From the NCBI GenBank assembly GCA_963667705.1, contig OY763937.1:515821-579820 (forward strand): a stretch of DNA of 64,000 nucleotides. The letters run 5' to 3'. The position numbers were made by a program, and so were the translations under genes. Below are positions 9,537-40,617 of this stretch, piece by piece. Numbering within the stretch: position 1 is the first letter of the stretch; the number at the start of each line of letters is the position of its first letter. The DNA comes from Alphaproteobacteria bacterium (GTDB lineage Bacteria; Pseudomonadota; Alphaproteobacteria; UBA828). The notes beneath the pieces were generated by a model that saw only the letters and a program-made list of their open reading frames with translations, was not told where the DNA came from and made no database searches.

Positions 9537-9757
9537 CGACCGGGCCGCAGGCCCGGCCGGCGCGACCGCGCCGGCGCGCGAAGCGCGTAGCCAAGCGAGC
9601 GGAGCGAGCGTCCGTTGCCAGGGATTCCTAACCATTCCCTCACGTTCCATAAGTTACTGAAATAGAGTTGCATATGCAGTGCGCTTGGCCCTTGCGTTCC
9701 CAGCCGTTCCCTCCCATTATTGAAACAAGTGTGGGACGCAACGTGGGTGGAATATCC

Positions 9758-10981
9758 ATGGCATCGTACCGAACGGCCACCGCGAATGCCGCCAGGCCGG
9801 GACGCCTCAACGCCGCCTTCGTCCGAACTGTCAGCCGACCGGGCGTCTATGGCGATCAGCACGGCCTCAGGCTCAGAGTCTACAAGTCCAGAAAACGACA
9901 GTCGATCTCCAAGCAATGGATCTGGCGCGGGACCGTCAACGGAACACGCAGAGATATCGGCCTCGGCGGCTTCCCCTACGTCTCCCTGGCCGAAGCCCGG
10001 CAGACCGCCTTCGAATACCGCAAGACAGCCAGAGCCGGTCTTGATCCGGTCACTCTCAGGCGCGGGCCCGACGTGCCGACCTTCGCCCAAGCGGCGGAGA
10101 TCGTGATCGGCATCCACCGCGAAGGCTGGAAGGACGGCGGCAAGAGCGAGGCGCAATGGCGAGCGAGCCTCAGGGACTACGTCTTGCCGAGGCTGCGCCG
10201 CAAGGGTGTCGACGAGATCACCACCGCGGACGTGATGGCGGTGCTCGTCCCGCACTGGCATACCAAGACCGAGACCATGCGCCGCGTGCGCCAGCGTATC
10301 GGAGCGGTGATGAAATGGGCGGTGGCGCAGGGCCATCGGGACGACAACCCTGCTGGCGACGCCATCGCCGCCGCGCTGCCCAAGGGCGGCAGCGTTCGCC
10401 AGCATCAGCGCGCCCTGCCGTTCCGCGACGTCGGCGCCGCGGTCGCCAGGGTGAGGACATCGGATGCGTACCGGCCTGCGGTGCTCGCCTTCGAGTTTCT
10501 GGTGCTGACGGCGTGCCGGTCCGGCGAGGTCCGGTACGCGACCTGGGACGAGATCGACTTCGCAACTGCGACATGGACGATACCGGCGCAGCGGATGAAG
10601 GCGAGGCGCGAGCATCGAGTTCCGCTGTCTGCGCGTGCGCTGGCAATTCTGCGCGAGGCGCGCGATATGAAAGACGGCTCGGGCCTGGTCTTTCCGTCGC
10701 AGCGCGCCCGCGCGATCCACGGTGGCACGGTCTCCAAGCTCATGCGGGAGCTGGGGATCGACGCAGTGCCGCACGGCTTCCGCTCGTCGTTTCGGGACTG
10801 GGCGGCAGAATGCACCGATGTGCCTCGCGAGGTTTGCGAGCTCGCCCTTGCGCATGTGAACTCCGACCGGGTGGAGGCCGCCTATCGAAGGACCGATCTC
10901 TTCGACCGGCGCCGGGCGCTCATGGAGCAGTGGTCGGAATTCATCGTCAGTGGTAGCGAAAACTCCTGCATCACGCCGTGA
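9758..10981 (+). CDS. int: Tyrosine-type site-specific recombinase/integrase (phage P4-like family)
   Basis: C-terminal catalytic motifs (HGFRSSFRDWAAE, LAHVNSDRVEAAYRRTDL with a catalytic Tyr) and an N-terminal arm-binding region. ATG at 9758 preferred within the longer ORF. Confidence 0.9.
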   Translation: MASYRTATANAARPGRLNAAFVRTVSRPGVYGDQHGLRLRVYKSRKRQSISKQWIWRGTVNGTRRDIGLGGFPYVSLAEARQTAFEYRKTARAGLDPVTLRRGPDVPTFAQAAEIVIGIHREGWKDGGKSEAQWRASLRDYVLPRLRRKGVDEITTADVMAVLVPHWHTKTETMRRVRQRIGAVMKWAVAQGHRDDNPAGDAIAAALPKGGSVRQHQRALPFRDVGAAVARVRTSDAYRPAVLAFEFLVLTACRSGEVRYATWDEIDFATATWTIPAQRMKARREHRVPLSARALAILREARDMKDGSGLVFPSQRARAIHGGTVSKLMRELGIDAVPHGFRSSFRDWAAECTDVPREVCELALAHVNSDRVEAAYRRTDLFDRRRALMEQWSEFIVSGSENSCITP

Positions 10982-12007: not shown

Positions 12008-14430
12008 ATGGCGCAATCGGATACCTGTGCCGGGGAGGCCGCCCGGATACGCGAGCGCCTGGCACTGCTCGACGCCGAGCGGGCGGATCTTGAGAAGCGG
12101 CTTGCGGAGCTCGCGCGCTCGACTTCGATGCAGCTGGCGAATGCGAGCCCCGGCGGTACGGTGACCAACCGTTCGCCCACGAACGACAAGATCGCGCTCT
12201 TCCGGACGCTCTTCGGCGGCCGGGAGGACGTGTATCCCCGGCGCTGGGAGAACGCTGCGAAGGGCAAAGCCGGGTACGCACCGGTCTGCGCCAACGAGTG
12301 GAAGCCCGACGTGTGCCACAAGCCCCGGGTGCGCTGCGGCGTCTGCCCAAACCAGGCCTTTGAGCCGGTCACCGAGGAAGCCATCGAAAGACATCTTCGC
12401 GGGCACCACACGATGGGCGTCTATCCGATGCTGGCCGACGATACCTGCCGGTTTCTCGCAGCCGACTTCGACAAGGAGACCTGGCACCGTGACGCGGGCG
12501 CTTATCTCGACGCCTGCCGCGCGAAGGGGATCCCGGCGGCGCTCGAGCGCTCGCGCTCGGGCAACGGCGCGCATGTGTGGTTCTTCTTCGAAGACCCCGT
12601 ACCGGCATCGCTGGCTCGCCGCCTCGGCGCCCACCTCCTGACCGAAGCGATGGAACGCAATCCCGATATCGGCTTCCGCTCCTACGACCGGTTCTTCCCG
12701 AGCCAGGACACGGTGCCCCAGGGAGGATTCGGCAACCTCATCGCGCTCCCCCTTCAAGGCGGCCCGAGGGAGAACGGCCACAGCGTGTTTCTCGACGCAG
12801 ACTTCGAGCCGTGGCCGGACCAGTGGGCGTTCCTCTCCGGGCTCCGGCGCCTTACTGGGCGGAGGCCGGAGTGATCGTGGATGAGGCCGGCCGGCTGGGC
12901 CGCGTCGTGGGGCTTCGCCTGCCGCTCGACGACGACGATGAAGAGCCCTGGACCGCGCCGCCGTCGAGGCGAAAACCGCTGCCTGCGATCGCCGGAGTGT
13001 TGCCCGAGCGCATCGCTGCCGTGCTGGCAGATCAGATCTACATTCCGCGTGAAGGCCTGCCGCCAGGGCTGGTCAACCGGCTCGTGCGACTCGCGGCTTT
13101 CCAGAATCCTGCCTTCTACGCCGCGCAAGCAATGCGTCGCTCGACCTTCGGCACGCCCCGCGTCGTCGCCTGCGCCGAGCTTCTCTCGCATCACATTGCA
13201 CTTCCGCGCGGTTGCCTGGCGGCGATGGAGCACCTGCTCGAAGAGCTCGGCATCCGTCTCGATCTGCAAGACAAGCGTTTCGCGGGCCGTCCGGTCGAGA
13301 CGACATTCCTCGGTGAATTGACGCTGGAGCAGGCGGCGGCAGCCAATGCCCTGCTCCAGCATGACACCGGCGTGCTGGCGGCGACCACCGCGTTCGGCAA
13401 GACAGTCGTCGCGGCATCGCTCCTGGCGACCCGCAGGGAAAACACCCTCGTCATGGTTCACCGCCGTCAACTCATGGACCAGTGGATCGCACGGCTCGGG
13501 GCGTTCCTCGATCTGCCGGCTTCAGCGATCGGGCAGATCGGCGGCGGCAAGCGCAAGCCCACGGGCGTCGTCGACGTTGCCGTCATCCAGAGTCTCGTGC
13601 GCGGTGACGAGGTGGACGACATCGTCGCCGACTACGGCCATCTCATCGTCGACGAGTGCCACCATCTCTCCGCGGTCAGCTTCGAGAAGGTGGCACGCCG
13701 AGCGAAGAGCAAGTTCGTGCTGGGGCTGTCGGCGACCGTGACACGCCAGGACGGTCACCATCCGATCGTGTTCATGCAATGCGGCCCGGTGCGGTTCCGG
13801 GCGAGCGCGAAGTCCCTCGCCCGTCAGCGCCCCTTCACGCATCGGACGTTGCTGCGCCCGACGGCGTTCCGCCTTCCCGACGACATCGCGGAGGAGCGCC
13901 CGCCGATCCAGCAGATCTATGCGGCGCTTGCCGAGGACGAGGCCCGCAACGATCTGATCTTCGACGACGTGCTGAACGCGCTCGAGGCGGGCCGCTCACC
14001 GCTCGTCCTCACCGCGCGCAAGGAACACGCCCGCCGGCTTGCCGAACGGCTCGACCGGTTCGCGCGGAACGTGCTGTTCCTTCGCGGCGGCATGGGGGCG
14101 AAGCAGCGCCGCTCGGTCATGCAGCGCCTCGAAGAGATCCCCGATGCCGAGGAGCGGATCCTGGTCGCGACGGGGCGCTATATCGGCGAGGGGTTCGACG
14201 ATGCGCGCCTCGATACGCTGTTCCTCGCGATGCCGGTCGCGTGGCGGGGGACGCTCGCGCAGTATGTTGGGCGGCTGCATCGGCTACATCCGTCCAAGTG
14301 CGAGGTTCTGGTTTACGACTACGTCGACGAGGCGGTTCCCGCACTGCGACGAATGACGCAGAAGCGCGTCCAGGGCTACCGCAGCCTCGGCTATTCGGTC
14401 GAACGGCCCGGCGGTGAAAGCACTGTGTGA
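12008..14430 (+). pseudogene. Frameshifted gene for an archaeo-eukaryotic primase (AEP/PrimPol-like) N-terminal domain fused to an SF2 DEAD/DEAH-box helicase. It resembles the conflict-system AEP-helicase proteins that annotation pipelines label 'TOTE conflict system' (name recalled from memory, not checked).
   Basis: Frame 2 (12008-12874) encodes the AEP-like region (CxxC...C..C, NGAHVWFFF). Frame 1 continues from about 12860 with Walker A (TAFGKT), DECHH (motif II) and a helicase C-terminal domain. The two reading frames overlap and switch near 12845-12870. Confidence 0.6.
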
Positions 14431-15380: not shown

Positions 15381-17876
15381 CTACGCGATCTTCCGTGAGG
15401 CAACAAACTCCCGATACGGCGCAAATGCGGCTGCGACCTGTTCGGTGGTGAGGCCGAAGTCCTTCAGGCTATATCGATGCGGTGGCTCCCGGCGACGTTG
15501 TTCCGCCTGCCGTTCGAGCCAGCTCTCCATATCGGCCGCAGCCGCCGGCTCGAGCCGCCAGTCGAACCGTTCGTAAATTTCGTTGACCACCGCCATCGGG
15601 TTCTCGACCAGGTCGCGGTAGCTCACATCGACCCAGCGCGCCTCGAGCTCGGGGCACGACGCCCGGAACCGCATCGCCTCGTTGAGCATGCCGCTCATCA
15701 GGTCCAGCTGCTCGGCACCGGTGTCGTGCCGCGGGCGCGGTTCGATGGAGACGGAGCGTATCCGGTCCACAAGGCTGTTCCACGATCCCATAAACTGCGT
15801 GGGCTCGCGATGGGTCTGGATAAAAACCGCATCCGGGTAGTTCGCGAGCAGCGCCTCCAGCTCCATGAGATGGAAGGGCATCTTGAGCAGCCAGCCCTTC
15901 CCGGCATCGGGCTCGCGCTGCCGGCGCTGCCAGGTGAAGTGCCGCATGACGCGACGGTGATAGGCGTAGGCATTGTCCGAACCGGTGGCGGCAAGCCAGC
16001 TGCGGTAGTCCGGCACGTAGTACGCGACGGCGTTGACCCAGGATGCGAAGGACTGCCTGAGGATCGGGAAATCCTCCTCGGGCTCGTCGATATCGATGCG
16101 GTGCATTTCGGCGAACTGATCCACGACCCGAATGGAGTCCAGCAACTCCTTCACGTGAGCCCGGCGCGGGTCGCCGGCGGTGCGCGCGACGGAGCCGTAC
16201 TCTCCGCTTGCCAGAACCGGCTCCGACAGCTCGTAGCGACGCAGCGTCCAGAATCTTCCGTCGCGCGCCATCATCCGGTGCAGAAACGTGGTGCCGGTTC
16301 GATTGATCCCCACGATGAACACCGGACGCACGATCTCCTCGCGCTCGATCTCGGGGTGCTGCTGCCACTCGCGGGCGAGCGCCGCATTGTTGCGAAGCTG
16401 GCGGTTCAGTTCGTAGACGAGGTGCGGGCGTCTCTCCTTCAGCAATCCGGCCTGTGGTGCGCTGAGTACCTCCACAAGGCGCTGGAATCCCGTACGCATC
16501 CACGCGGGAAACGTGTGGTCGAAGGGAACGCCGACGCGTTCGGCGTAACCCTCGGCCTGCGCCATCAGGCGGTCGAGGTCCAGGCGGGCTTTCGGCACCG
16601 GATAGGGCCACCCGTCGCCCTGTCGCCGTATCCAGTCGTAGGAGCGCGAATGCCGGAGGAGCAATGCCGGCCACTGGACAGGAAAGGGACAGTCCTCGCG
16701 AATGGCGCGATCGTCGACCGGAGCAACGCCGCCGGCCTCGCCGTCCGCGAACCAGTACGGTGCGAAGTAATCGAGAAGCGTCCACAGCCCGTGCAGCGGA
16801 GAGCGCTCTCCAAGCGCCTCGCAGGCACGCTTGAACGTCTCGTATGGAACTTCGCGCAAGTAGAGGCCGAAATCGGCCGGCCCGAAATCGTCGTGCGGAG
16901 GTTGCGGATCGCAGCAATGGTAGATTGTGAACCGCCGCTCGGGATTCGCCGAGATTGCGGCGCATATCTCGGTGAGCGTATCCACGGGCTCGGCACAGCT
17001 CTGTATGGAGAAGCCGGCGGGAGCCATTTCGACCTGTATCGCCGCGAGGTAGATGGAGAGCGCGACGGCGCTCGCGTTCGTGAATCCCGTGCTGGACATC
17101 CCTGTCTGCGGCAGGCGAAAAATCGCCACCGGCAGTCCGGCCGCGTTCGCGAAGAGCAGGACCTGTTCGGAAACGAGCTTGCTCCACGGGTATCCAAGGA
17201 AGCCGAGCGGCAACACCCTCTTCATGGTTGCCAGATCGGGCTGCATGTGGTGCTCGATACGACTGCGACTGAATTCGTTCGAGAAATTGCAGAAGTACTC
17301 AGGGAAAACGGCCATCGTGGAAGCGTAGAAGACGTGCTTGAAACGCGTTCGCAGGCACAACGCGAGCACATTGCGAAGACTGGTCGCGTTCACGTCGCGT
17401 ATCGAGGAGTAGGACGACACGAGGGAGAGGTCGGCGGCAAGGTGGTAGACCGCGTCGATGCGTCGGCACAGATCGTCGAATTCCGCATTGCTCAAGCCGA
17501 ATCGAGGCGCGCAAATATCCCCGGCCACGACCCGGATGCGCGGCCCGAATGCGTCGTCCCAGATCTCGGCGTGCTCCAGGGCGGCGCGTATCCGCGCGAA
17601 GCCATGCTCGACGCCGTCCGTGCGGACCAAGCAGTGCACCACGAGGCTGTCGTCTTGCCGCAGGAGATCGCGCAACAGAAAGCGGCCCACGAACCCGGTG
17701 GCGCCGGTCAGCAGGACTTCCCGGAAGTCGTTCGCCGATACCGGCTCGGCCGGCGATTCCTCCCCGATGGTGGAATGAACGAATCTGCGCAAACCGTCGA
17801 GGTCGCGCTGGCACTGCATCGGCAAGCGACCGGCGAGGGAGGGCACCGCGCAGGAAGCGGGGAGCGTTTCAGCCAT
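15381..17876 (-). CDS. Bifunctional thioester reductase (SDR-type R domain) and sulfotransferase fusion protein
   Basis: N-terminal LLTGATGFVGRFLL NAD(P)-binding motif and YPWSK (YxxxK), matching NRPS/PKS terminal reductase domains. C-terminal VFIVGINRTGTTFLHRMM is a PAPS-binding 5'-PSB loop of the sulfotransferase family. Confidence 0.8.
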   Translation of the reverse strand: MAETLPASCAVPSLAGRLPMQCQRDLDGLRRFVHSTIGEESPAEPVSANDFREVLLTGATGFVGRFLLRDLLRQDDSLVVHCLVRTDGVEHGFARIRAALEHAEIWDDAFGPRIRVVAGDICAPRFGLSNAEFDDLCRRIDAVYHLAADLSLVSSYSSIRDVNATSLRNVLALCLRTRFKHVFYASTMAVFPEYFCNFSNEFSRSRIEHHMQPDLATMKRVLPLGFLGYPWSKLVSEQVLLFANAAGLPVAIFRLPQTGMSSTGFTNASAVALSIYLAAIQVEMAPAGFSIQSCAEPVDTLTEICAAISANPERRFTIYHCCDPQPPHDDFGPADFGLYLREVPYETFKRACEALGERSPLHGLWTLLDYFAPYWFADGEAGGVAPVDDRAIREDCPFPVQWPALLLRHSRSYDWIRRQGDGWPYPVPKARLDLDRLMAQAEGYAERVGVPFDHTFPAWMRTGFQRLVEVLSAPQAGLLKERRPHLVYELNRQLRNNAALAREWQQHPEIEREEIVRPVFIVGINRTGTTFLHRMMARDGRFWTLRRYELSEPVLASGEYGSVARTAGDPRRAHVKELLDSIRVVDQFAEMHRIDIDEPEEDFPILRQSFASWVNAVAYYVPDYRSWLAATGSDNAYAYHRRVMRHFTWQRRQREPDAGKGWLLKMPFHLMELEALLANYPDAVFIQTHREPTQFMGSWNSLVDRIRSVSIEPRPRHDTGAEQLDLMSGMLNEAMRFRASCPELEARWVDVSYRDLVENPMAVVNEIYERFDWRLEPAAAADMESWLERQAEQRRREPPHRYSLKDFGLTTEQVAAAFAPYREFVASRKIA

Positions 17877-18136
17877 CTCCTGTCTCGCTCGCTACCGGGG
17901 ACGCCGAACCTGAGCCCACCCGGTCGCCGCGGACTGCGACTGCCGGGCCGCGGATCGGAGACCGAGCAGCCAGGGAGTGCTCGGGTCTTCAGAACCAGGG
18001 GTGCGACGCTGCGGAGGAGGCCGTGTCCGATCCATGAGTGCCACCCTCCCAACAACGTGCCGCAAGGAGGCATGCAGGTTTCGGTAACGTGACGGTGTCC
18101 TGGTCGGTATGGAATCCGGGCCGGTCTGGCGAATGG

Positions 18137-21100
18137 TCAGGACTCCGACGTCATTTCGTTTCGGCTCGCACAGAGCACCGGCGGAAAGTGATCTTCCAGG
18201 ACGCTTGCGAATTCCGACGGCCTTCGGCGCCCGCGGAGCCGACCGGAGAGAGGCGCGTCCGCGCTCTCCACTGCATCGGTCTCGCCTTCCACTTCCTCGG
18301 GCTGTTCCGCTCTGTGGACGATCGCATGCGCCAAGGACTGGCAGGTGGCGGTGGTCATCAGCTCCAGAGCGCTGACCTGGAAGTTGAACTGATTCTGAAG
18401 AAACGCCACGAGCTCGGCAACGGAGATCGAATTGAATCCGAAACTCGCCAACGGCTCGTCCATGTCGCCTTCATCGTGGCCGCATAACTCGGCGACCTTC
18501 TCGGCGATCTGCGTCATCACGGTTTCGAGCGTGAGCCGGTCGTCGGAATGACCCTGGAACGCATCGTGGTTGCTCATCAGGCGGCCGATGCGCATGTAGT
18601 CCGCAGAGTCAACGGTCAACGGAACCCGCTTGAACAGCGCGGTCACAAGATGGTCGCTGTCGGACAGTCTGCGCAGCGCGTAGTCGAGGTTGGCGATTGC
18701 GAAGTGAACGCTCACCGGGGGCATGCCGGCCATCCTCAGCATGCGCAGTACATGGTGGTTACGCGAGGCCATGCCGACCTCGGCGACCGCCGCAATGTTG
18801 TAGGACAGCGCCGGCAAACCCTGCCCGCGGCGCCACGTTGCGAGGCCATCGAGGTAGGCGCTGGCGGCGCTGTAGTTGATCTGTCCGGGATTGCCGAAGG
18901 TCGAGGCAGTGGACGAGACCATGACGAAGAGGTCGAGCGGATGCCCGGCTGTCGCCCGGTGAAGATTCAGCGCGCCGGTCGCCTTGGGAGCGAACACCGT
19001 CTCCACGGATTCCCGCGACATGGTGTCGAGCAGACGGTCATCGAGTACACCGGCGAGGTGAAAGACGCCCTTGAGCGGGCGGCGCAGGCTGGCGACGCAG
19101 CGCTCCACGTCCGCCGCAATCGCGACATCGCCCGCGACGATGTCGATCTCGCATTCATGGGCCATGTATTGCAGCGAGCTCGATTCGCGCAACCAGTCGG
19201 CGCTACGGCGACGCTCAGGGTCCCGATCCATCAACGTGAGATGGCGGGCTCCGACTGAGACGAGATAGGGCAGCAGGCACAGACCGAATCCGCCGAGGCC
19301 GCCGCTCACGAGGTAGGTCGCATCGGGGTCGAGCAGCGGGCGCCGGTCGACGATCGGGAACTGCGGATGAACACCGGCCGGCGGGGACCTGAGCACCAGC
19401 TTCCCCTGATGCTTGCCGCTGGTCATCAGGCGCAGGGCCTTCGCGTAGTCCTCGTAGTCGTAGACGGTGATCGGCAACGGCGGCAGTTCGCCCCGTTCGA
19501 GCAGGTCGAGACAGGTCTCGGAGAGTCGGCGCAGGAGCCAGGGGTCGTCGACCATCAGGCGATCCACGTCGACCGCGGCGAAGCGCAGGTTCTTGCGGAA
19601 GACGTAGAGGCCCAGCGGATTATCGGAGTAGATGTCGACCTTTCCGATCTCGCAGTGCCAACCGCCCGGACGCAAGGCCTCTAGACACAGCGCGAGGTGA
19701 CGGCCGGCGAGGGAGTTCAGGACCACGTCGACACCTTCGCCGCCTGTCGCTCCCATCAACTGGTCGTACCAGCTCTCGCTGTGCGAATCGAACGCCGCGC
19801 TCGCACCGAGCTCGAGAAGCCGATCACGCTTGGCCTCGCTTCCCGCCGTTGCGTAGATCGTCGCCCCTGCGCGCCTGGCAAGCGCGATGGCGGCCTGTCC
19901 CACTCCGCCCATGGCGGAGTGAATGAGGACGCTCTGACCTTCGGACAGCCGAGCCAGGTGAACGAGGGCATAGTACGCGGTGAGGTAGACCGAGAGCGAA
20001 GACGCGGCTTGCTCCATGTCGAGGCGGGCAGGCTTGGAAAACACGAGGGGGGCGTCGACGACTGCCCGATTGGCGATACATCCGCCCTGGGTGAAGATCA
20101 CCTCGTCGCCGGCCAGGCAACGGTCCACCCCCTCGCCGACCCGGCGCACGACTCCACTGGCTTCCATGCCGACCTCCAGCCCCAGCGCGGAGCGTTCGTA
20201 GGCCGCCGAGGGCAGCAGTCCCAAGGTCGCCATGACATCGCGGAAGTTGAGCGCCGCCGCCTTCACGTCGACCTCCACCATCCCCGGCCCGAGCGCCGCG
20301 GGTTCGTACGTCTTCATCTGCAACCCGCCGATCTGCCCCGGGTTGTCCAGGCACAGGCGGTAGGTGGTTTCGTCGCCGGCGGGGACGCAGGGAGCATGGT
20401 CGCGAATGCTTTCAATGCGGGGTACCCACAGGCGGCCCCCCCGCACCGCGACCTCCCGATCGCGCAGATCGCAGCGAGCGAGCGAGGCCAGGGTCTTCAG
20501 GTCGTCGTCGGCACCGAGATCCACCAGACGGAAGTCGATTCCGGCATCCTCGCCCACCTCGATCGCCATGCTGCGAACCGCGCCCCACAGGCCGCACCCG
20601 CGCGGGTCTTGAACGTCAAAGGCGGCGCCCCGAGTCACGACGGTGACGCGGCACCGGGACTCCGCATGCTCGGTCCGGTACGACACCAGCGCCCGGACGA
20701 GGGCGACAAAGGCCGACACCACCCCCTCACCGGTAGGGTCCTGCGGATCGCGACCGCAGAAGAAGTCGACGGCCTGCAAGTCCGCCACCCGAGGCCATTC
20801 GTCGATGTCGTGGACCTCGCCGCAGACGAGAGGCTCAAAGGCAATCGGGTACACCTCCGGATCATCGAGCAGGGACGGCCAGTCCTGCGCCGGGCTCTGC
20901 GGCTCGCCCACCACCCAACGGGGTGTCGGAACAGCCGTCGCATTCAGGGGTTTCGCCCACGACTGCGGGGCCTGAAGCAGGGTGCTGCGCGCGGCGGCGC
21001 GAACGACGGCCCAACCGGCGCCGGGTTCGAGCACGTCGCCTTCGGAGTGAGAGACCAGTGCCAGGCCTCCGGCCACCAGCAAGCGTCTCCAGAACTCCCA

Positions 21101-24100
21101 GTCCCCGGGGGCGAATGCGGCCGCATCGCGATGCAGAAGGAGCACCTCCACCGCAGCCGGGCGCAGCAGGCCCTCATCGAGTGCAGTCGCCTGGCACTCG
21201 GCCGCGTCGATGCATTCGAATCGCAGAGCGGCGTCGGCTGCGTGAAACGCCTCGTAGCTCTTGCCGGCGCTATCTTCATCGTGGCTGACGAGCCAATACT
21301 CGCTCTGCCGTCCGGCACCCGACAGGTGCCCGACGCATTGCTCGAGCATGGTCTGCTCGGGCTCCCTGCACCCTGCGAACTCCAAGACGCGGCACGCGCG
21401 GTCCGCTCCGTCAACGGGTTGTTCGAGAGCGGCGAGCAACTCCGCAGGGTCGATGTCGCCGGCGGACAGCCGGTCGGCGAACGCCCGGCCGTTCGGCAGG
21501 AACTTGGGCTGCCAGACGATCCGGTGCTTGCTGTGAGGCAGGTCGCCCCTTTTCAGGTTCGAGTCGAAATGGATGTATTTCTGGACGTAGGCAACGAGGG
21601 CTCCATTGGATTGGTCGTAGAAGCTGATGCTGCCCGACAGCCGCTCGCCCTCGGACGGGTTGAATTGACCCTTGTCGTCGATATCCACGGCTCGATCGGG
21701 AGGATCCCTCAGAAGACAGGTCAGCCGCGGTCCCGACGCCACACCGAGAAACGTCATGTGCTCGATTCGCCGCGGGATGCACAGGTGATCGGGAGTAAGC
21801 AACATGTTGTAGAGAAACGCCTGAAATGCGCCGTCGATCAGCGGGGGGTAGAAGACGTACCCCTCATCTCTGCCGTCGGCCCACAGGGTTTCGTCGATTT
21901 CGAGATCGGCCAGGAAGGACCGGGTCGCCTCGTCGCGCTGAATCTGCCGGATGTTTCTGCAGTGGGGGCCGTAGCCGTACGTATCGCCCAGAACCGCCTC
22001 GAAACGTTCGTAGAGTTCCTCTCCGGAGGCATGCTTGAGGGGCGCGTAGGCGGAGCGGTCGATGTCTCCGAGCCGGCCTGGAGCGTCCAGCGCCGGCGGG
22101 TCGCTCAACACGCGCACCTTGCCCCGACAGTGCGACTCGCTCCTGGTGTCCTCGCCGTAGGGCCGGGTGGAAATGACGAAGGTGTATTCGGACGGGGAAT
22201 TGGCGACCGGATGCAGCGCCGTCTGCAGGCGCACCGGCGTTCTCGGGACCGGGCAAGGCTGAAGAAACTCGATCACGTCGAAGTGCACCGGCGCCCCGCC
22301 GAACGCCTCGAGAATCATCTCGATGTAGCCCGTCGCCGGCATGATCGCCGCGTGATGGACCACGTGGTCGGCGGCCCACGGAAAGGCCCGGTCAGAGAAA
22401 CGCGCCTCGAACATCAGGTGATCGCACGGGATCCGGTGACCGACGAGCGGGCCGTGAGAGTACTCGGCTCCCTGATTGTGGAACTCGTCGTCCGCCATGG
22501 TATCCGCCTTCTTCTCCTCGTCCTTCGGATGTCCGGGCAGCAGGTGAGGAAGGGGCTCCGGGCGCGGGTACCGGGAGGCAAAGTCGAGCGGCACGCCGGC
22601 TCTGAACAATGCCCCCAGCGATTCGAGAAAACCGATGCGCGTATCGCTGTCGCGCATGAATGTCGCGATCGAGGTCGGGGCGGACACACCGTCGGCCAAG
22701 CATTGTGCGATGACGGGCTGCAGCGCGCAGTGCGGCGCAAGCTCGAGCACCGCCTGCGGCCGGTGGTCGCGCTTGACGGCGTCCATCGCGGCGGCAAAGC
22801 GCACGGGCTGGCGGATGTTCGACCACCAGTACGCGCTGTCGAGGCGCTCGGTGAGGCTGCCGGTCACGGATGAAACGAAGGGAACGTCGAGGTCGAAGGC
22901 CAGCTCGTCGAGGAAGGACAGCGCCGCCGCCACGTCCTCCCGGATGGCGTCCATCGCCCGGGAGTGAAAGGCGATGTTTCCGGGAACCAGTCGATTCTGC
23001 AGGTTGCGCCGTTCGAGCTCCTCGATGACAGGCTGCAAGGCGGTTTCGCTGCCGCAAATGACGGTATTGGCCGGCGCATTCTCGCAGGCGATCTCGACCT
23101 GGACCGGCCGGTTCGCATCGAGCCGGAAGGGAACTTCGAGGGTGTCCAGCAACTCCTCGACGCCGCAACGATCGAGGCCGATCGCCAGCATACGGCCCGA
23201 CCCGGCGGCGCGTTGCTGCAACGTGGCGCGATGGAAGACCAGTCGCGTCGCGTCTCCCAGGGAAAGCGCTCCGCAGGCGTAGGCTGCGGCCACCTCGCCG
23301 GAGCTGTGGCCGACCACGCAGTCCGGATAGACTCCCCAAGTCTTGAACAATTCGACGAGCGCGCACTGGAGCATGAAGATCACGGGCTGGGCCAGCTCGC
23401 ATTCGTCGAGCTCCGACTGCGGCGCGGAGAAGCAGGCCTCGCGTAGCGAGACGTCCGAATGTTCGCGCCAGTGCGCCTCGATCGCGTCGATGACGCGGCG
23501 AAATACGGGGTCGGCGCCATAGAGCGCGCGGCCGCAACCGGCCCACTGCGTGCCCTGTCCGGCGAACACCATCGTCAGCCGCGGCTCGCCCTCCTCTGCG
23601 GTCGCAACCGGGGCGCGTTCCTCCGCAACGGCATCGAGCCCCTCTTCGAGCTCCTCCAAGTCGCGCACCGCAAGCGCGGCGCGCGTGGAGAAATGGGTGC
23701 GACGGCGGCTGAGATTGCCGGCCAGCGTATAGAGATCCACAGGCCGCCGGTCGAGCATCTCGCGAAGCTGCCCCGCGCTTAGGGCGAGCGACTTCGCATT
23801 GCGCGCCGAAAGGGGAATGACGTAGCCGGCCTCCGGAGCCAGGGCGACCGACCAGATGCGGGGACGCGCCGGGCGGTACTCGCGCACCACACAGTGCCCG
23901 TTGGCGCCGCCGAAGCCGAAGGAGTTGATGCCGACGACGACGGGATGTTCGGGAAAGGGCTCGACCTCCGTCTGCACCCGCATCGGGCAGCGGTCGAAAT
24001 CGATTTCGGGATTCGGCACCAGGTAGTTCTTCGATGTCGGCGCGAAGGTGCGGCGCTGCATCATCAGGACGACCTTCAGCATCGCGCAATGGAATGCGGC

Positions 24101-25192
24101 CGCTTCCATATGCCCGACGTTGCTCTTGACGCTCGAGACCCGAAGCGGCACCTCGCGATCGAACCCGCCGAACGCCTCCGCGATGGCATTGCCTTCGATC
24201 CGGTCTCCCACCACGGTTCCCGTCGCGTGGGCTTCGACGTAGTCGAACTCCCGGGCAGTGCGCCCGGCACGGGCGGCAGCGGTGCGCATCAGCTCGACCT
24301 GCGCGTGACGGGTCGGCGCGACGATGTTGCGACCGGGGGGCAGGCCCACGGCGTCGTCCGCCGCGCCGGCCGCGTTGACCGCGCTCGCCTCGATCACGAC
24401 ATGAATGGGATCTCCATCGCGCTCCGCCGCGGCCAGGGGCTTCAGCGCGAAGATGAATGCGCCTTCGGAGCGCATGTAGCCGTCGGCCTGGGCGTCGAAG
24501 GAGTGGCACTTACCTTCCGGGCTGATGACCCCCATGAGGTTGAAGCTGCTGCTCAGCCTTGCGCTGCCCAGGTAGGTAACAGATCCGACGAGCGCCTGAT
24601 CGCAGTCGCCGCACTGAAGGGCGTTCATGGCCGAGTGCAGCGCGCTCAGACCGGCGGAACATGCCGTGCAGTACGCGATCGAGGACCCCATGAGGTTGAA
24701 GTGGTACGAGATCCGGTTGGCCAGCATGGCCACGCTGATGCCGATGACGGAGTACTCGCTGACGCCATGCTGAGGCCGCCAGCTCGACACGGCCGGAACT
24801 TGTGCCCCGATGAACACTCCGGTGGAGCTATTGCGCAGTGCATGGAAGTCCCAGCCGGCATGCTCGATCGTCTCCCACGCGCAGTTCAGCAGCATCCTGA
24901 CCTGCGGTTCCGTCTTCATCATTTCGTTGTGGGACATTCCGAACAGTGTGCGGTCGAAGAGCAGCTCGTTGCTGTCGCGGATCAGTCCTTCCCAGGGACT
25001 GGCAAGGCGCCCCGGGCCAGAAAACTCCCCGATCGGCAGGTGGCCTTTGCCGTAGCGATCGGTGATCGGCTCCTGGACGATCTCGCGCTCGGCGAGCAGG
25101 CGCCAGAAATCGGAGTCCGAGCGGATGCCACCGGGCAGGCGGTGGCCGTATCCCACGATGGCGACGTCGCTTTCTCTCCTCTGCGACGTCAT
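18137..25192 (-). CDS. Type I polyketide synthase, fully reducing single module (KS-AT-DH-psiKR/linker-ER-KR-ACP). FAS/mycocerosic-acid-synthase-like. No thioesterase.
   Basis: KS active site TACSAGL with HGTGT and NVGH motifs. AT motif GHSSGE with IAFHS, which predicts malonyl specificity. DH HxxxAxxxxP-like motif. ER motif LIHSAMGGVGQAAIALA. KR Rossmann motif YLVSGGLGGFG. ACP motif GFNSIS. Confidence 0.95.
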   Translation of the reverse strand: MTSQRRESDVAIVGYGHRLPGGIRSDSDFWRLLAEREIVQEPITDRYGKGHLPIGEFSGPGRLASPWEGLIRDSNELLFDRTLFGMSHNEMMKTEPQVRMLLNCAWETIEHAGWDFHALRNSSTGVFIGAQVPAVSSWRPQHGVSEYSVIGISVAMLANRISYHFNLMGSSIAYCTACSAGLSALHSAMNALQCGDCDQALVGSVTYLGSARLSSSFNLMGVISPEGKCHSFDAQADGYMRSEGAFIFALKPLAAAERDGDPIHVVIEASAVNAAGAADDAVGLPPGRNIVAPTRHAQVELMRTAAARAGRTAREFDYVEAHATGTVVGDRIEGNAIAEAFGGFDREVPLRVSSVKSNVGHMEAAAFHCAMLKVVLMMQRRTFAPTSKNYLVPNPEIDFDRCPMRVQTEVEPFPEHPVVVGINSFGFGGANGHCVVREYRPARPRIWSVALAPEAGYVIPLSARNAKSLALSAGQLREMLDRRPVDLYTLAGNLSRRRTHFSTRAALAVRDLEELEEGLDAVAEERAPVATAEEGEPRLTMVFAGQGTQWAGCGRALYGADPVFRRVIDAIEAHWREHSDVSLREACFSAPQSELDECELAQPVIFMLQCALVELFKTWGVYPDCVVGHSSGEVAAAYACGALSLGDATRLVFHRATLQQRAAGSGRMLAIGLDRCGVEELLDTLEVPFRLDANRPVQVEIACENAPANTVICGSETALQPVIEELERRNLQNRLVPGNIAFHSRAMDAIREDVAAALSFLDELAFDLDVPFVSSVTGSLTERLDSAYWWSNIRQPVRFAAAMDAVKRDHRPQAVLELAPHCALQPVIAQCLADGVSAPTSIATFMRDSDTRIGFLESLGALFRAGVPLDFASRYPRPEPLPHLLPGHPKDEEKKADTMADDEFHNQGAEYSHGPLVGHRIPCDHLMFEARFSDRAFPWAADHVVHHAAIMPATGYIEMILEAFGGAPVHFDVIEFLQPCPVPRTPVRLQTALHPVANSPSEYTFVISTRPYGEDTRSESHCRGKVRVLSDPPALDAPGRLGDIDRSAYAPLKHASGEELYERFEAVLGDTYGYGPHCRNIRQIQRDEATRSFLADLEIDETLWADGRDEGYVFYPPLIDGAFQAFLYNMLLTPDHLCIPRRIEHMTFLGVASGPRLTCLLRDPPDRAVDIDDKGQFNPSEGERLSGSISFYDQSNGALVAYVQKYIHFDSNLKRGDLPHSKHRIVWQPKFLPNGRAFADRLSAGDIDPAELLAALEQPVDGADRACRVLEFAGCREPEQTMLEQCVGHLSGAGRQSEYWLVSHDEDSAGKSYEAFHAADAALRFECIDAAECQATALDEGLLRPAAVEVLLLHRDAAAFAPGDWEFWRRLLVAGGLALVSHSEGDVLEPGAGWAVVRAAARSTLLQAPQSWAKPLNATAVPTPRWVVGEPQSPAQDWPSLLDDPEVYPIAFEPLVCGEVHDIDEWPRVADLQAVDFFCGRDPQDPTGEGVVSAFVALVRALVSYRTEHAESRCRVTVVTRGAAFDVQDPRGCGLWGAVRSMAIEVGEDAGIDFRLVDLGADDDLKTLASLARCDLRDREVAVRGGRLWVPRIESIRDHAPCVPAGDETTYRLCLDNPGQIGGLQMKTYEPAALGPGMVEVDVKAAALNFRDVMATLGLLPSAAYERSALGLEVGMEASGVVRRVGEGVDRCLAGDEVIFTQGGCIANRAVVDAPLVFSKPARLDMEQAASSLSVYLTAYYALVHLARLSEGQSVLIHSAMGGVGQAAIALARRAGATIYATAGSEAKRDRLLELGASAAFDSHSESWYDQLMGATGGEGVDVVLNSLAGRHLALCLEALRPGGWHCEIGKVDIYSDNPLGLYVFRKNLRFAAVDVDRLMVDDPWLLRRLSETCLDLLERGELPPLPITVYDYEDYAKALRLMTSGKHQGKLVLRSPPAGVHPQFPIVDRRPLLDPDATYLVSGGLGGFGLCLLPYLVSVGARHLTLMDRDPERRRSADWLRESSSLQYMAHECEIDIVAGDVAIAADVERCVASLRRPLKGVFHLAGVLDDRLLDTMSRESVETVFAPKATGALNLHRATAGHPLDLFVMVSSTASTFGNPGQINYSAASAYLDGLATWRRGQGLPALSYNIAAVAEVGMASRNHHVLRMLRMAGMPPVSVHFAIANLDYALRRLSDSDHLVTALFKRVPLTVDSADYMRIGRLMSNHDAFQGHSDDRLTLETVMTQIAEKVAELCGHDEGDMDEPLASFGFNSISVAELVAFLQNQFNFQVSALELMTTATCQSLAHAIVHRAEQPEEVEGETDAVESADAPLSGRLRGRRRPSEFASVLEDHFPPVLCASRNEMTSES

Positions 25193-30059: not shown

Positions 30060-31802
30060 TCAAGCCACCGCGGATCGCGCGACTTCATTCGCGCTTGAAT
30101 CCAGTGCGCGTTGGAAGGACTCCAGCGCATCCTCCAGCCCATCTCCCCGGTAGCGAAACTCATCGGGTATGGTCTGGTAGCGCGCCTGGGCTCGCTCGAA
30201 CGACGCCTGTCTCCGATTACTGAATTCCTCCGCCTCCGAAACGCGGTCAGGCACCGCCTCTGGGAACATCTGCAGCTCGCTCCTCAGGAAGCTCAGAAAG
30301 TCATGGATGGCGATCTGCTGACGGCCGATCCGCTCGAAGTGGTGACCCATGGCCGCCAGGTAGATCGCGTCCGGCAGCATGCGGGGGTAGTCCTTGGAGA
30401 CCTTGCCGATGAACTTCGAATAGGCATGAAGCTGCTTGGCGGAGAGACAACGGCGAACGCGCATGAAGGCTGCATCGATGTCGTTCCTGCTCCTGGGCTT
30501 TCGAAGATGCCCGACGGGCTTCAGATGCCTGAACAGAGTGAGGCAGCGGCCGAAGTAATTCTCCAGGGTCGGATCGTAGAGTGTGGCGAGCACCCGTTTG
30601 TATCCCTCGATCAGTGTCCTGTAGTCCATCTCCGGCTTGAAGTTGAGAGGCATGGCATTGGTTCCGATCGGCGCCTCCAGAAGCCGGTTTTCCGACTTCA
30701 TGCGCTCGTACATGTCCGTGCCCTTCAAGGCGGTCAACAGGTAGATGGGGGCTACGGGAATGCCGGTCTCCTGGATGAACTCGATCTGGGCATCGAACAC
30801 GCCCTCGTCATCGCCATCCAGACCCAGGATGAACCCGCCTTGGACCTGCATCCCACGCTGCTGGATTTTTCGGACGGCAGTGAAGATGTAGTTTTCCTGG
30901 TTCTTGCTGGTGTTCTGCGGCTTCTTGGTCTTGAGTAAGGCCTTGGGGTTCGGGGTCTCGATACCGACAAACACGGTATCGAAGCCGGCCTCGATCATCG
31001 CATCCATCATTGCGTCCATCAGCGCAAGATTCGCACTCGCTTCCGTGGTCAGGGTGAAGGGATATCCCTTGCTCTTTTGCCATTCGGCTATCGCCGGCAG
31101 CAGGTTCATGGCATCCCGCTTGTTGCCGATGAAGTTGTCGTCAACCAGAAAGACCGGGCCTCGCCACCCCAGACGGTAGAGGGAATCAAGCTCCTCCGAG
31201 ACCTGTTCCGGCGACTTGGTGCGAGGCACGCGGCCATAGAGCTTGATGATGTCGCAGAACTCACAGTCGAACGGACATCCCCGAGAGAACTGCACGCTCA
31301 TGGTGGCGTAGTTCGTCAAGTCGATGAGGTCGAAGCGGGGAACCGGCGTCAGGGTCACGTCCGGCTTCCGTGTTTCCCGATAGATTCTCTTGGCCGTGCC
31401 GGCTTCCAGGTCCCGAAGGAAATCCGCAAAGATTTCCTCGGCCTCGTCCAGCACGAAGTGGTCCACGCCTGCGATGTCCTGGTGAAAGGTGGTCGGATGA
31501 GGCCCGCCGGCCACCACTGGAACGCCCGCGTCGTTGCAGCGTTCGACCACGGCTCGCAGCGACAAGTGTTGCGTGATCATCGTGGACGTGAACGCAAGAT
31601 CCGCCCACTCAAGATCGGCGTCGCGCAGCGTACTCACGTTCATGTCCACCACGCGGAGCGCATAGCCGGGAGGGAACATCGCGGCGACGGTCAGAAGCCC
31701 GAGAGGTGGAAAGGTCGCCTTGAGCCCCGACATCTCGAGCGCGTGGTCGGCCCCCCAGAAGGTCGGCGGCTGCTCCGGGTAGACGAGCAGAGCGTTCGGC
31801 AT
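30060..31802 (-). CDS. B12-binding-domain radical SAM protein with a C-terminal DUF4070 (class B radical SAM, methyltransferase-like)
   Basis: CxxxCxxC motif (SRGCPFDCEFCD), an N-terminal cobalamin-binding-like domain, and a C-terminal extension typical of the HpnR/BchE-like group. Confidence 0.85.
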   Translation of the reverse strand: MPNALLVYPEQPPTFWGADHALEMSGLKATFPPLGLLTVAAMFPPGYALRVVDMNVSTLRDADLEWADLAFTSTMITQHLSLRAVVERCNDAGVPVVAGGPHPTTFHQDIAGVDHFVLDEAEEIFADFLRDLEAGTAKRIYRETRKPDVTLTPVPRFDLIDLTNYATMSVQFSRGCPFDCEFCDIIKLYGRVPRTKSPEQVSEELDSLYRLGWRGPVFLVDDNFIGNKRDAMNLLPAIAEWQKSKGYPFTLTTEASANLALMDAMMDAMIEAGFDTVFVGIETPNPKALLKTKKPQNTSKNQENYIFTAVRKIQQRGMQVQGGFILGLDGDDEGVFDAQIEFIQETGIPVAPIYLLTALKGTDMYERMKSENRLLEAPIGTNAMPLNFKPEMDYRTLIEGYKRVLATLYDPTLENYFGRCLTLFRHLKPVGHLRKPRSRNDIDAAFMRVRRCLSAKQLHAYSKFIGKVSKDYPRMLPDAIYLAAMGHHFERIGRQQIAIHDFLSFLRSELQMFPEAVPDRVSEAEEFSNRRQASFERAQARYQTIPDEFRYRGDGLEDALESFQRALDSSANEVARSAVA

Positions 31803-32403: not shown

Positions 32404-35400
32404 CTACATACTCAACCCTCGACTCCTGCGGAGGTGCTTTCCGAGTTTTCGGTCCCGCTTCTCCGCCTTCTCGCGCAGCTCGCGAAGTTTCTCGGGATCG
32501 TTGAGAATATGGGCGAATCCTTTCTGGTTCTCGTCCGGATCCAGGGGCTTGGCCGACGGCCTGTCGAGCGTGTGAGCGAACCCCCGTTGTTCCCGCTCGC
32601 CCTGCCGCCCGGGCCGCTGTTCAGACTTGCGGCGCGCTTCGAGAGTGTGAGCGAAGCCTTGCTTCTGCTTGGGCGTCGGCTCGGGCCGGGACTGTGATAC
32701 CTCCGGCTTTGCGGCGCGTTCGCGGTTGTCGCGGAACCGGTTGCGCAATTGCTCCACGGTGAGCTGTGCCCGGGACCTGCCGATGGTCATGGCGTCGAGG
32801 TAGGCGCCGTACCTGTCCTCGTTGGCGAGGACGGCTTCGCCGGTGGCGGCCAGCATCTCAGCCGCCTCGCGCCATTGGGGCCAGACGTCGAGACGGCTGA
32901 TGGGAAGGCCCTGCTCGCCAGCCTGAGCCTCAAGAACCTTGTACGCCTCGACATGCCGCTCCGCGGCGGCGAGATAGCTCTCGACCGTCTCGCGCGCCAC
33001 GGTCTCGTCGTCGTGATACGCGAGAAGCTCGTCGAGCACGCCGCGTGCGCGTTCGGTCAGCTCGGGATAATCGGCGAGCGCGCGGACGCGACGGATCAGC
33101 GCGTCGTATCCGTCCATCAGCAAGAGCGGAAGATCCGGTTGCTGGGAGCGTGCGACGAGATCGTTCCAGTCGCGCTGCAGCTCCCTGTAAAGCGTTCGCC
33201 AGTCGGGCGGGGGCTCGCGTTCCGGTCCGGGCGCTGCTGCTTCCGAAGTCCGGGGCGGCAGGGACTCTTCGGGAGCGGGTGCGGCGATCCCGGCCGCTAT
33301 GGTGTCGACGATCTGCGCTTCTTCGCGCGGTGCGTCCTGGCGCTTCGCGTCTTGGCGCTGCGTGTCCTGCCGCGCCCGGTGGGCGGCCCTGGTCGTCACC
33401 GACCTGAGGTACTTGCCGGCGCGCGTGTGCTGTCTGCCGAACTCCTCGATTTCGCCCCGGCCGATACCGGCGCGCTCGGCGAGCAGGCGCTCGAACACCT
33501 GCGGACGACGGCGGAACGATGCGGCCTGCTTCATCAGCGCACCGTGCCGGCCGAGAGTCTCTCGGAAAGCCGGCGTCAGCGCCACCGCGTCGCCGTCGGC
33601 GCGCGCACGCCGGCGAAGCTCGTCCCAGGCCGCCATCACTTGCGTGCGCTCCGCCGCGAACGCGTCCACGGCGGCGCCGTGGCGCCAGCCGTTGACGGCG
33701 TGACGGATTTCCTGGGCAATGCGCATGATCGCGTTGTCGTTCACGGCCACTGGTGTCTCTACTGTCGCGCGGCCCTCGGCGGATACTGCCTGCCCTTCGC
33801 CGGGTCCCTCGCGCACCGCACCCGGCTGTCGATTTGCCCCGTTCCCGACGCCGGCCCGTCCAAGCTGCGCTTGTTCGCTCGCTTCGCGCCATGCACCGTC
33901 GGTGACGTAATCGAGCGCCGCCTCCTTGGGTTGCGAGCGCGACCAGCGCTCGGCCAGATAGGCACGGATGTCGCTGTCCAGCACCGGCCGCTCGGCCTCG
34001 TCCTCGGGGAGGCTCTCGGCGATGTCGAAGACGATGGGCGAGCGGTTGACGTAGACGTCGATCCCCTCGCGGTGCCGTGTGGCTGCCGGATAGATCGTCT
34101 CCCGCGCCGGCCGGTCGTCAATCAGCAGGAAGGCGCGGTCCACCGTCAATCCCTGGGCGGACGCGATGGTCATGGCATAGCCGTAGTCGAGACGGATGTT
34201 GTCGTGGTAGTCGCGGATCTCGTCATGGCGGAACTCCACGCATCGCCCGTCGTCGGTGCGCGCGGTGATCTGAACCGATATCTCTGGTTCGGGCTCGCCC
34301 CTGTCCAGATGCGAAGCCCGCCCGGCGCGGCCACTGGCCAGCCGGTTGCGGGCTTTGCGCGTGACCGCCGCGCCTTCCACCTGCCGCGCCTCGATGTCCT
34401 CGACGGTGACCACCGTGCCGTTGAAGAGCTGCTTCTCCCACTGGGTGGCGCCGATGCGCAGCCGGTCGCCCACCGCGATCTCCAGCGGCTCGGTGACCCG
34501 CCCGTCGAGGTCGCGGCTCACCTCGATCACCGCGCGCTTGATGTCCGTCCGTTCTCCGAGCACGCGTTCCCGCATCAACCATGACAATGCGCGCGCCTCG
34601 GCCTTCGTGCGCGCCAGCACCACGGCGGATTTTTCGGGCTCGTCCTTCACGAGCCGCGCCCAGTCGTCGACCAGGCGCCTCAGCGTCTTCTCCTCGTCGT
34701 AGCAGAGATGGAGCCGGCCCCTGAGCCGCCACGCCTCGATCGCCTGCGCGGCTTCGCCGTCCCTGAGCGCTTCGGAGACCGCAACCTGCCACGGCGTGAA
34801 CAGCGGTTTGCGATCCATCGCCTCGTACTCGGCCATGATGGCGTCGCGTTCCTGCGAGCTCGTGAGTCCCGCCCTGAACCGCGCTTGCTCCGGCGTCTCC
34901 CTGTGGACATGGACGAGCACGTCCTCGAGGTCTGCTTTCTGGCGCCGGATGCGGTCGACGCGGACGCTGCCGGCGACGTCGCGGATCAACCTGAGCCCCG
35001 GACCCGCCTCGACCGGCTGCTGTTGCCTGGTGTCGCCGGCGAACACCACCTTGGCGCCGTGGCGCTCGCAGAGCTGCAGGATGTGATGCGCCTGGCGCGT
35101 GGACAGCATCCCTGCCTCGTCCACCACGATCAGGGTGTTGCGGTCGACCTCGAGTTGCCCCTTCGCCGCGAGCTTCAGCAGCTTGTCGACGCAGTAGGGA
35201 CGCGCGTCGCAGTCGTCTCCCAGCGCCACCGCCGTACGCCACGCGACGGCGGTGGGCACGATCTCGTAGCCGTGCTCCCTGTGCAGGTCGGTGATGGGCC
35301 GGAGCGTGGTGGTCTTGCCAGACCCCGCCGCGCCCTCGATCACGGCCACACGGCCGCCCATCGCGGTGGCGTGCCGGATCGCCAGAGACTGCTCCTGGCT

Positions 35401-40253: not shown

Positions 40254-40617
40254 TGTTCGTCTCCTCATATCCAGGTTTCTGACGATGGGTGACGAGCGGA
40301 CCGGGGACACTCTCTCGACCCCCTCCCTGCTCACTCTTCGCGAAGCCCTTCTCGAACTCTCCTCTGCCGCCTGCCTCGACGGTCACGGGACAGGCGCGGA
40401 GCTTGCGGACCTCGCGGACCGTACGGATGACGGCGCAGGATGCCGTGAAGGCCGAGTGGCGTCGGTTTACGACGGCGCGGCGCCGGGGTCGGAGGAACGG
40501 GTGGAAGCGGCCGCACCCTCGCGGCGCGAAGCGCTGCACGTGGACACGGGGTGGGGCGCGGTCTCGGTGGCCGATTACCGCGTCCCCCCAGCAGCAGCCC
40601 CGGCGCCGGCGAGCGGG

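Follow-up and report, generated by a model that had tools for sequence, protein, structure and literature searches.

The window analyzed here is a stretch of 64,000 nucleotides (nt) from an alphaproteobacterium (GTDB lineage UBA828; GenBank assembly GCA_963667705.1, contig OY763937.1, positions 515,821 to 579,820 of the forward strand). It carries a copy of the swf operon ("sponge symbiont widespread FAS," with FAS for fatty acid synthase), which was described by Della Sala et al. in 2013 (PMC3908369). We focused on swfB, which encodes a protein of 831 amino acids (aa) that combines a thioester reductase (R) domain and a sulfotransferase (ST) domain. The open reading frame (ORF) starts with ATG, runs without interruption, and shows a coding-type codon bias, with a G+C content at third codon positions (GC3) of 0.81. 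The positions of this gene, its domains and motifs, and the surrounding features are collected in Table 1.

An initial annotation of swfB, made from the letters alone, had proposed that an N-terminal thioester reductase of the short-chain dehydrogenase/reductase (SDR) type is joined in one polypeptide to a C-terminal sulfotransferase using 3′-phosphoadenosine-5′-phosphosulfate (PAPS). Both domains were recovered, and they lie on the single 831-aa ORF. In Pfam profile searches, aa 56 to 292 matched NAD_binding_4 (PF07993; E 2.3e-48; 165 bits at a cutoff of 20.1) and aa 518 to 776 matched Sulfotransfer_3 (PF13469; E 1.8e-34; 120 bits at a cutoff of 27), which places the C-terminal half among the sulfotransferases and in no other P-loop family. 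The NCBIfam thioester reductase model TIGR01746 also matched (E 1.3e-55), at 189 bits and so short of its strict cutoff of 213. The reductase assignment is further supported by the motifs TGATGFVGRFLL (aa 57 to 68) and YPWSK (aa 229 to 233) and by the top solved-structure match of the N-terminal half, the terminal R domain of MxaA (4u7w; E 1e-40 to 1e-52). The SwfB reductase has the SDR fold, the GxxGxxG motif, and the S/T-Y-K triad in common with the R domains of MxaA (myxalamid), Mycobacterium tuberculosis Nrp, and carboxylic acid reductase (CAR), whereas those domains are C-terminal in their synthetases and the R of SwfB has a free N terminus and an ST at its C terminus. The C-terminal half carries the 5′-phosphosulfate-binding (5′-PSB) loop NRTGTTFLH (aa 525 to 533), and its top solved-structure match is M. 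tuberculosis Stf1 (2zq5; E 2e-36), which aligned to aa 462 to 819 with E 2e-51. In Foldseek comparisons, the ST half reached template modeling (TM) scores of 0.83 with Stf1 and 0.79 with Stf9 (2z6v). Among solved structures, these two proteins come nearest to the ST half; they share its PSB and 3′-phosphate-binding (PB) motifs, which line up with RTGTT and THR in Stf1. In contrast to SwfB, they are stand-alone enzymes of ~385 to 415 aa with no link to polyketide synthase (PKS) release, and the identity is only 23 to 28%.

The R-ST arrangement is conserved well beyond this locus. The catalytic and cofactor-binding residues of both domains are invariant across 77 family members, and G58/G61/G64, R85 (located after the second strand of the R domain), S186, Y229, K233, R526, G528, T530, E601, K665, H669, and R690 are kept in at least 92% of a set of 27 divergent R-ST didomains with identities of only 29 to 54%. 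Judged by these alignments, all catalytic motifs of SwfB are intact. The N-terminal extension ahead of the Rossmann fold is also conserved, with C22, D25, and P42 invariant and L14, L18, P19, and R30 nearly so. The connector between the two domains has a nearly constant length (56 to 63 aa in most R-ST didomains), and HMMER alignments run through R, connector, and ST without a break, eukaryotic proteins included, which marks R-ST as a conserved module of two enzymes rather than a fusion that arose recently by accident. It is extremely improbable that the fusion is an artifact of annotation or assembly, a decaying pseudogene, or a redox-inactive R of the Dieckmann cyclase type. Nothing specific speaks for these readings beyond the calling of SwfA as two ORFs in certain metagenome contigs, a sign that the cluster is not free of assembly errors, and they are contradicted by the intact ORF and its GC3, by a length of ~831 aa kept in hundreds of homologs, and by the invariance of the nucleotide-binding, S-Y-K, and both PAPS-binding motifs. 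More than 100 homologs down to 61% identity are ~831 aa long and align over their full length, which speaks against two separate genes; a misjoined ORF was rejected on the uninterrupted frame and on the same length in homologs.

Compared with the published proteins by architecture, size, and SwfA motifs, the window gene is assigned as an orthologue of SwfB. The published operon comprises SwfA with ketosynthase (KS), acyltransferase (AT), dehydratase (DH), enoylreductase (ER), ketoreductase (KR), and acyl carrier protein (ACP) domains (2349 to 2361 aa), SwfB with "R + ST domains" (832 to 839 aa), and SwfC, a B12 radical S-adenosylmethionine (SAM) enzyme of 585 aa that is missing from one published cluster (PMC3908369). 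The three products encoded in the window agree with these in architecture and size (2351, 831, and 580 aa). The SwfA signatures QCALVEL, GHSSGE, and IAFH, and the lack of the canonical KS motifs DPQQR and HGTGT (PMC3908369), are likewise reproduced: the window SwfA carries FAGQGTQW at aa 543, QCALVEL at aa 609, GHSSGE at aa 628, and IAFH at aa 740, and a motif scan found neither DPQQR nor HGTGT in it. Cross-phylum SwfB identities in the family studied here are 56 to 64%, in line with the 58 to 59% reported between SwfB and POR_0550 (PMC3908369). The window copy differs from the 2013 clusters in its gene order (swfC, MFP, RND, swfA, swfB), with an efflux pair inserted between swfC and swfA, in its alphaproteobacterial host, and in its location inside an integrase/relaxase island. 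The initial annotation had presented the fusion as unusual, and here it erred: an R + ST SwfB has been in print since 2013, and relatives are encoded by at least 217 species-level genomes. What is new relative to the 2013 description is the evidence from ACP-R-ST fusions, the linkage to the efflux pair, and the mobile context of the window copy.

Table 1. Features of the 64,000-nt window (SDR, PSB, PB, and domain abbreviations as in the text; RND, resistance-nodulation-division; MFP, membrane fusion protein; SSB, single-stranded DNA-binding protein; SF2, superfamily 2)
Feature	Position (nt)	Strand	Basis or remark
swfB, 831-aa reductase-sulfotransferase (R-ST)	15381..17876 (including stop codon)	minus	Intact ORF, PF07993 + PF13469, >100 full-length homologs
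SwfB N-terminal extension, aa 1-43, conserved helix LP..C..D.D.LR before Rossmann fold	17748..17876	minus	Alignments
SwfB thioester reductase (R) domain, aa ~44-400, with R85 and catalytic S186, Y229, and K233	16677..17747	minus	Pfam, NCBIfam, structure matches, conservation
Rossmann motif G58-x2-G61-x2-G64 of R	17685-17705	minus	
YPWSK of R (Y229, K233)	17178-17192	minus	
R-ST connector, aa 401-461, helical	16494..16676	minus	Model + didomain alignment
SwfB sulfotransferase (ST) domain, aa 462-831, Stf1/Stf9-like	15384..16493	minus	PF13469, 2zq5 alignment, Foldseek
5′-PSB loop R526-T-G-T-T530 of ST	16287-16301	minus	
3′-PB motif R690...S698 of ST	15783-15809	minus	
swfA, 2351-aa monomodular fully reducing type I PKS/FAS, KS-AT-DH-ER-KR-ACP	18137..25192	minus	Pfam, signature motifs
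SwfA C-terminal motif RRPSEFASVLEDHFP, aa 2323-2337, beyond ACP and acidic spacer	18182..18226	minus	Tail alignment
RND (HAE1-type) efflux permease, 1051 aa	25445..28600	minus	PF00873 E 6e-128
RND periplasmic adaptor (MFP), 394 aa	28613..29797	minus	PF13437; TIGR01730 E 6e-24
swfC, 580-aa B12-binding radical-SAM enzyme with DUF4070	30060..31802	minus	PF02310, PF04055, PF13282
Tyrosine integrase	9668-10981	plus	
SF2 helicase	12577-14430	plus	
TrwC relaxase-helicase	32404-36735	minus	
YAcAr/SLOG-family protein	37825-38760	minus	
SSB	39801-40334	minus	
TraG/VirD4 coupling protein	42999-44975	plus	
Tandem-repeat array, 84-nt period	47014-47433		
Tandem-repeat array, 195 nt	49263-49847		Within ORF 47749-50106
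Tandem-repeat array, 63 nt	52486-52697		Within ORF 51261-52859
tRNA-Gly (GCC)	59767-59841		Sole RNA gene in the window by ARAGORN + Rfam; far from integrase

The constant partner of swfB is swfA. It lies directly upstream of swfB in 75 of 80 loci, the remaining 5 being contigs that end too early. In loci long enough to tell, the gene order is swfA-swfB or swfA-swfC-swfB. SwfA is the predicted supplier of the acyl-ACP substrate of SwfB. Beyond its ACP, SwfA ends in a motif with the pattern RR.PS.FA...EDHFP, which holds as a consensus of at least 80% across 76 SwfA tails from many phyla. The gap between the two genes is 260 nt (17877 to 18136) in the window and its closest relatives, versus ~62 nt in most other loci, and scans for promoter-like, terminator-like, and Rfam features found none there. 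In two metagenome contigs that encode SwfB proteins 94% identical to ours (L081, 2237 to 9292; L082, 2235 to 9290), SwfA appears as two predicted ORFs (789 and 1549 aa). An identical break in POR_0547/POR_0548 was put down to sequencing error (PMC3908369), and split calls of this kind may reflect a recurrent frameshift or faulty assembly.

The relation between SwfA and SwfB is illuminated by proteins in which the R-ST module stands on the same chain as an ACP. We searched 1.84 billion representative proteins exhaustively for the R-ST didomain. A 3179-aa protein (P0122) carries KS-AT-DH-ER-KR-ACP-R-ST on a single chain, and P0125 and P0135 are similar, so that the R-ST module is not confined to the split form of the sponge symbionts. 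P0122 (locus L085, 8001 to 17540) is in effect a fused SwfA and SwfB without an adjacent swfC; it adjoins a phosphopantetheinyl transferase of the ACPS type in a Bacteroidota-like context, with a Por_Secre_tail protein nearby. In the alveolates Chromera velia, Gregarina, and Rhytidocystis, multimodular megasynthases likewise terminate in R-ST, and an ending of the R-ST type had been noted in Coccidia (PMC3908369). All of these fused megasynthases have a contiguous, homologous R-connector-ST with 29 to 48% identity and the same catalytic residues, and the bacterial ones (P0122, P0125, and P0135) have the same upstream domain set as SwfA. They differ from the swf proteins in that their R is covalently attached behind the ACP while that of swf is on a separate protein, and the eukaryotic enzymes differ further in being multimodular. 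No product has been reported for any ACP-R-ST megasynthase.

An alignment of the junction (P0122, P0126, and P0136) identified the N-terminal stretch of SwfB as the end of a continuous ACP-to-R linker. The fused proteins keep both the R(R)PS.FA...EDHF(P) motif of the SwfA tail and the LP..C..D.D.LR helix of SwfB inside one linker, and the split point of swf falls in the variable spacer between these two conserved elements. This suggests that the free-standing R is a terminal release domain parted from its ACP by gene fission, or else that the fused forms arose by fusion. Because swfA always lies upstream, ACP-R-ST chains exist, and the split maps to the linker spacer, the R domain of SwfB is best read as the domain that frees chains from the ACP of SwfA. 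The initial annotation had set the free-standing R against the usual attachment of R domains behind a carrier protein; this contrast would be accounted for by gene fission, with R-ST found right behind an ACP in some bacteria and alveolate eukaryotes. The SwfA tail motif and the N-terminal helix of SwfB may aid the association of the two proteins and are candidate contact or docking elements.

Further genes recur near swfA-swfB. Of the 80 loci, 18 carry an orthologue of the RND permease (53 to 91% identity), usually accompanied by the adaptor, no more than 10 kb from swfB; these orthologues lie up- or downstream and in either orientation in Alpha- and Gammaproteobacteria. Their high identity across classes and variable placement argue that the pair is a dedicated partner and not a chance neighbor, and it is likely the exporter of the swf product. 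The permease scores 381 bits with the NCBIfam model RND_permease_2, under the cutoff of 1250. Of 75 complete loci, 42 carry a swfC orthologue no more than 10 kb away. The nearest NCBIfam models of SwfC are radical-SAM C/P-methyltransferases, all matched far under their cutoffs; SwfC is likely a C-methyltransferase acting on the chain.

At E ≤ 1e-10, a word-indexed protein search with SwfB gave 908 relatives, of which the best 120 are all ~831 aa long and align with full coverage at 61 to 94% identity; where named at all, these are called "SDR family oxidoreductase." The figure of at least 217 genomes comes from a scan with one genome per species. The best 80 of these are all metagenome-assembled genomes (MAGs) representing about ten phyla, and several bear names that derive from sponges. 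They include Alphaproteobacteria (Paracoccaceae, Boseongicola, Defluviicoccus, and Thalassobaculaceae), Gammaproteobacteria (Arenicellales, including Candidatus Poriferihabitaceae), and members of the Nitrospirales, Acidobacteriota, Latescibacterota, Binatia, Tectimicrobiota, Opitutales, Spirochaetia, and Rhodothermales. The closest representative at the 50% identity level (P0121) is 54% identical to SwfB, and its cluster includes a protein of the gemmatimonadotal Candidatus Palauibacter, whose species names allude to sponges. The nearest relative of the window itself is an alphaproteobacterial MAG with 93% nucleotide identity across 12.6 kb. As in the 2013 study, this distribution is independent of taxonomy, a feature also stressed in papers of 2022 and 2023, which still describe the function of swf as unknown. 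A megablast search of PLSDB with the 9.8-kb swfA-swfB region gave no match.

Collectively, we consider that SwfB is probably the release-and-tailoring enzyme of the swf operon, in a route to an exported alkyl sulfate. SwfA, working iteratively, would build a saturated acyl chain on its ACP, and SwfC would possibly C-methylate it. We infer that the R domain, using NAD(P)H, would then release the chain and reduce the aldehyde on to the primary alcohol, a four-electron reduction, and that the ST domain would transfer sulfate from PAPS to this C-1 hydroxyl. The resulting long-chain, possibly methyl-branched alkyl sulfate would be exported as an anionic amphiphile by the RND/MFP pump. Alcohol formation by the R domain is plausible by analogy, as the terminal R domain of MxaA is a four-electron reductase and an apicomplexan PKS thioreductase (TR) converts octanoyl-CoA to octanol. 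The initial annotation had already suggested reductive release followed directly by O-sulfation; this chemistry is plausible and offers the best available hypothesis for SwfB. A possibly methylated alkyl sulfate had also been proposed as the swf product (PMC3908369). Sponges, ascidians, and echinoderms are known sources of aliphatic sulfates, for which biosynthetic genes have yet to be assigned.

Several points weigh against this route. On the side of the reductase, the TIGR01746 match (189.1 bits) lies under the strict cutoff of 213.35; the third-best structural match, 8v1x, which like MxaA resembles the N-terminal half, is a Streptomyces PKS TR that could be a two- or a four-electron enzyme; and two- and four-electron reductases are indistinguishable by sequence, according to the study of the apicomplexan TR. 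On the side of the partners, neither the RND/MFP pair, absent near swf in 62 of 80 loci, nor swfC, absent within 10 kb in 33 of 75, is obligatory. The literature searched identifies no product for any swf cluster more than a decade after the operon was described and yielded no biochemical study of an R-ST didomain. The 2013 authors remarked that sponges are not known to contain alkyl sulfates widely, even though these would escape standard lipid work-ups (PMC3908369). Nothing in the present evidence supports the substrate channeling suggested in the initial annotation, and structure prediction gave no support for coupled active sites. An AlphaFold2 model of SwfB from the 77-sequence alignment has a mean predicted local distance difference test (pLDDT) score of 68.7 and a predicted TM (pTM) score of 0.61. 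It is confident in the Rossmann core and the ST half (pLDDT of ~80 to 95 for the ST), while pLDDT falls below 50 at residues 186 to 235, 250 to 276, 285 to 329, and 373 to 408, which make up most of the substrate-binding subdomain of R. Because of this low local confidence and the pTM of 0.61, the interdomain geometry is uninterpretable and a tunnel is neither shown nor excluded; the conserved connector length is compatible with a fixed R-ST arrangement and does not prove one.

The uncertain extent of reduction bears on a different reading, in which R stops at the aldehyde after a two-electron step and ST sulfates either a mid-chain or β-hydroxyl that SwfA has left by reducing incompletely or a separate acceptor, yielding a sulfated hydroxy-aldehyde or a derivative of it. 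The extent of reduction is not predictable from sequence, iterative PKSs can skip reductions (PMC3908369), and sulfated aldehydes have been proposed as the origin of the toxadocials of sponges, which are themselves sulfated aliphatic aldehydes. However, the strong Pfam matches of the KR, DH, and ER domains of SwfA predict a saturated chain with no other hydroxyl, and the simplest explanation for a connector of conserved length and for R and ST being kept together in bacteria and eukaryotes is that they catalyze consecutive steps at the same carbon terminus. We therefore regard an aldehyde product as unlikely.

The role of the ST domain has also to be compared with that in CurM and the olefin synthase (OLS), the best-characterized precedent of an activating ST embedded in a PKS. 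There, as in SwfB, a PAPS-type ST of the same broad fold acts at type I PKS chain release. The CurM/OLS domain is coupled to a thioesterase (TE) and sulfates a β-hydroxyl for (decarboxylative) elimination, whereas SwfB pairs its ST with a reductase. If sulfate were a leaving group in swf as well, a transient alkyl or β-hydroxy sulfate would lead to a terminal alkene, an ether, or an alkylated compound; this possibility was raised in the 2013 study (PMC3908369), and it accords with the lack of a sulfated swf product in the literature. Against it, SwfB and the neighboring genes encode no TE or other eliminating partner, and a phmmer search with the ST half finds Stf1 and Stf9 only, even at E ≤ 10. 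The CurM/OLS ST is remote by fold (E ~2 to 5e-4; TM 0.47 to 0.52; 13 to 14% identity), and a recurrent efflux pump suits a stable amphiphilic end product. With no TE in SwfB, SwfA, or their neighbors and only a remote fold likeness, a CurM-like activating ST was rejected, and the broader idea of sulfate as a leaving group appears improbable. Since its nearest relatives are Stf1 and Stf9 and the CurM/OLS domains are only remote, the ST half looks like a tailoring and not an activating enzyme, in keeping with the proposed alkyl sulfate route.

The swf operon is one of the few biosynthetic clusters common to unrelated phyla inside marine sponges. The window holds a complete, intact alphaproteobacterial copy that is usable for heterologous expression, and the recurrent efflux pump suggests that an amphiphile is secreted. 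Should the product prove to be an alkyl sulfate, aliphatic sulfate natural products would have their first assigned genes. A more far-reaching and tentative hypothesis, which we consider possible but doubtful, is that swf is a cassette for an exported, long-chain, possibly methyl-branched alkyl sulfate acting as a natural anionic surfactant resembling sodium dodecyl sulfate (SDS), spread horizontally into about ten phyla in sponges as a shared symbiosis factor (e.g., in host recognition, evasion of phagocytosis, or antifouling), and that it provides those first aliphatic-sulfate genes.

The surroundings of the window copy suggest how such a cluster might travel. An island-like block (9668 to 44975) has a G+C content of ~0.65, versus ~0.72 in its flanks, and the swf operon lies inside it, flanked on one side by the integrase and helicase and on the other by genes of the conjugation type. 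Neither a VirB4-type gene nor an adjacent tRNA was seen, and no credible att-like direct repeats were found at its boundaries. Homology to the closest swf loci ends ~30 to 100 bp beyond the swfB stop codon, and the locus encoding a SwfB 94% identical to that of the window (P0001, from metagenome contigs) has housekeeping genes downstream instead; no protein identical to the SwfB of the window is on record. The window copy thus looks like the cargo of an integrative mobilizable island, a single case that fits cross-phylum spread and offers a route for it. The mobile-element genes of this island were found beside swf in none of 85 other loci, so that the integrative and conjugative element (ICE) as a general vehicle of swf rests on one case.

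Promoter, terminator, and Rfam scans gave nothing above chance except the tRNA. Outside the island, a low-G+C block (46000 to 53000; 0.55 to 0.62) contains three tandem-repeat arrays. The ORFs at 47749 to 50106 and 50206 to 51111 have matches to β-barrels of the TbpB type, and these look like repetitive surface lipoproteins.

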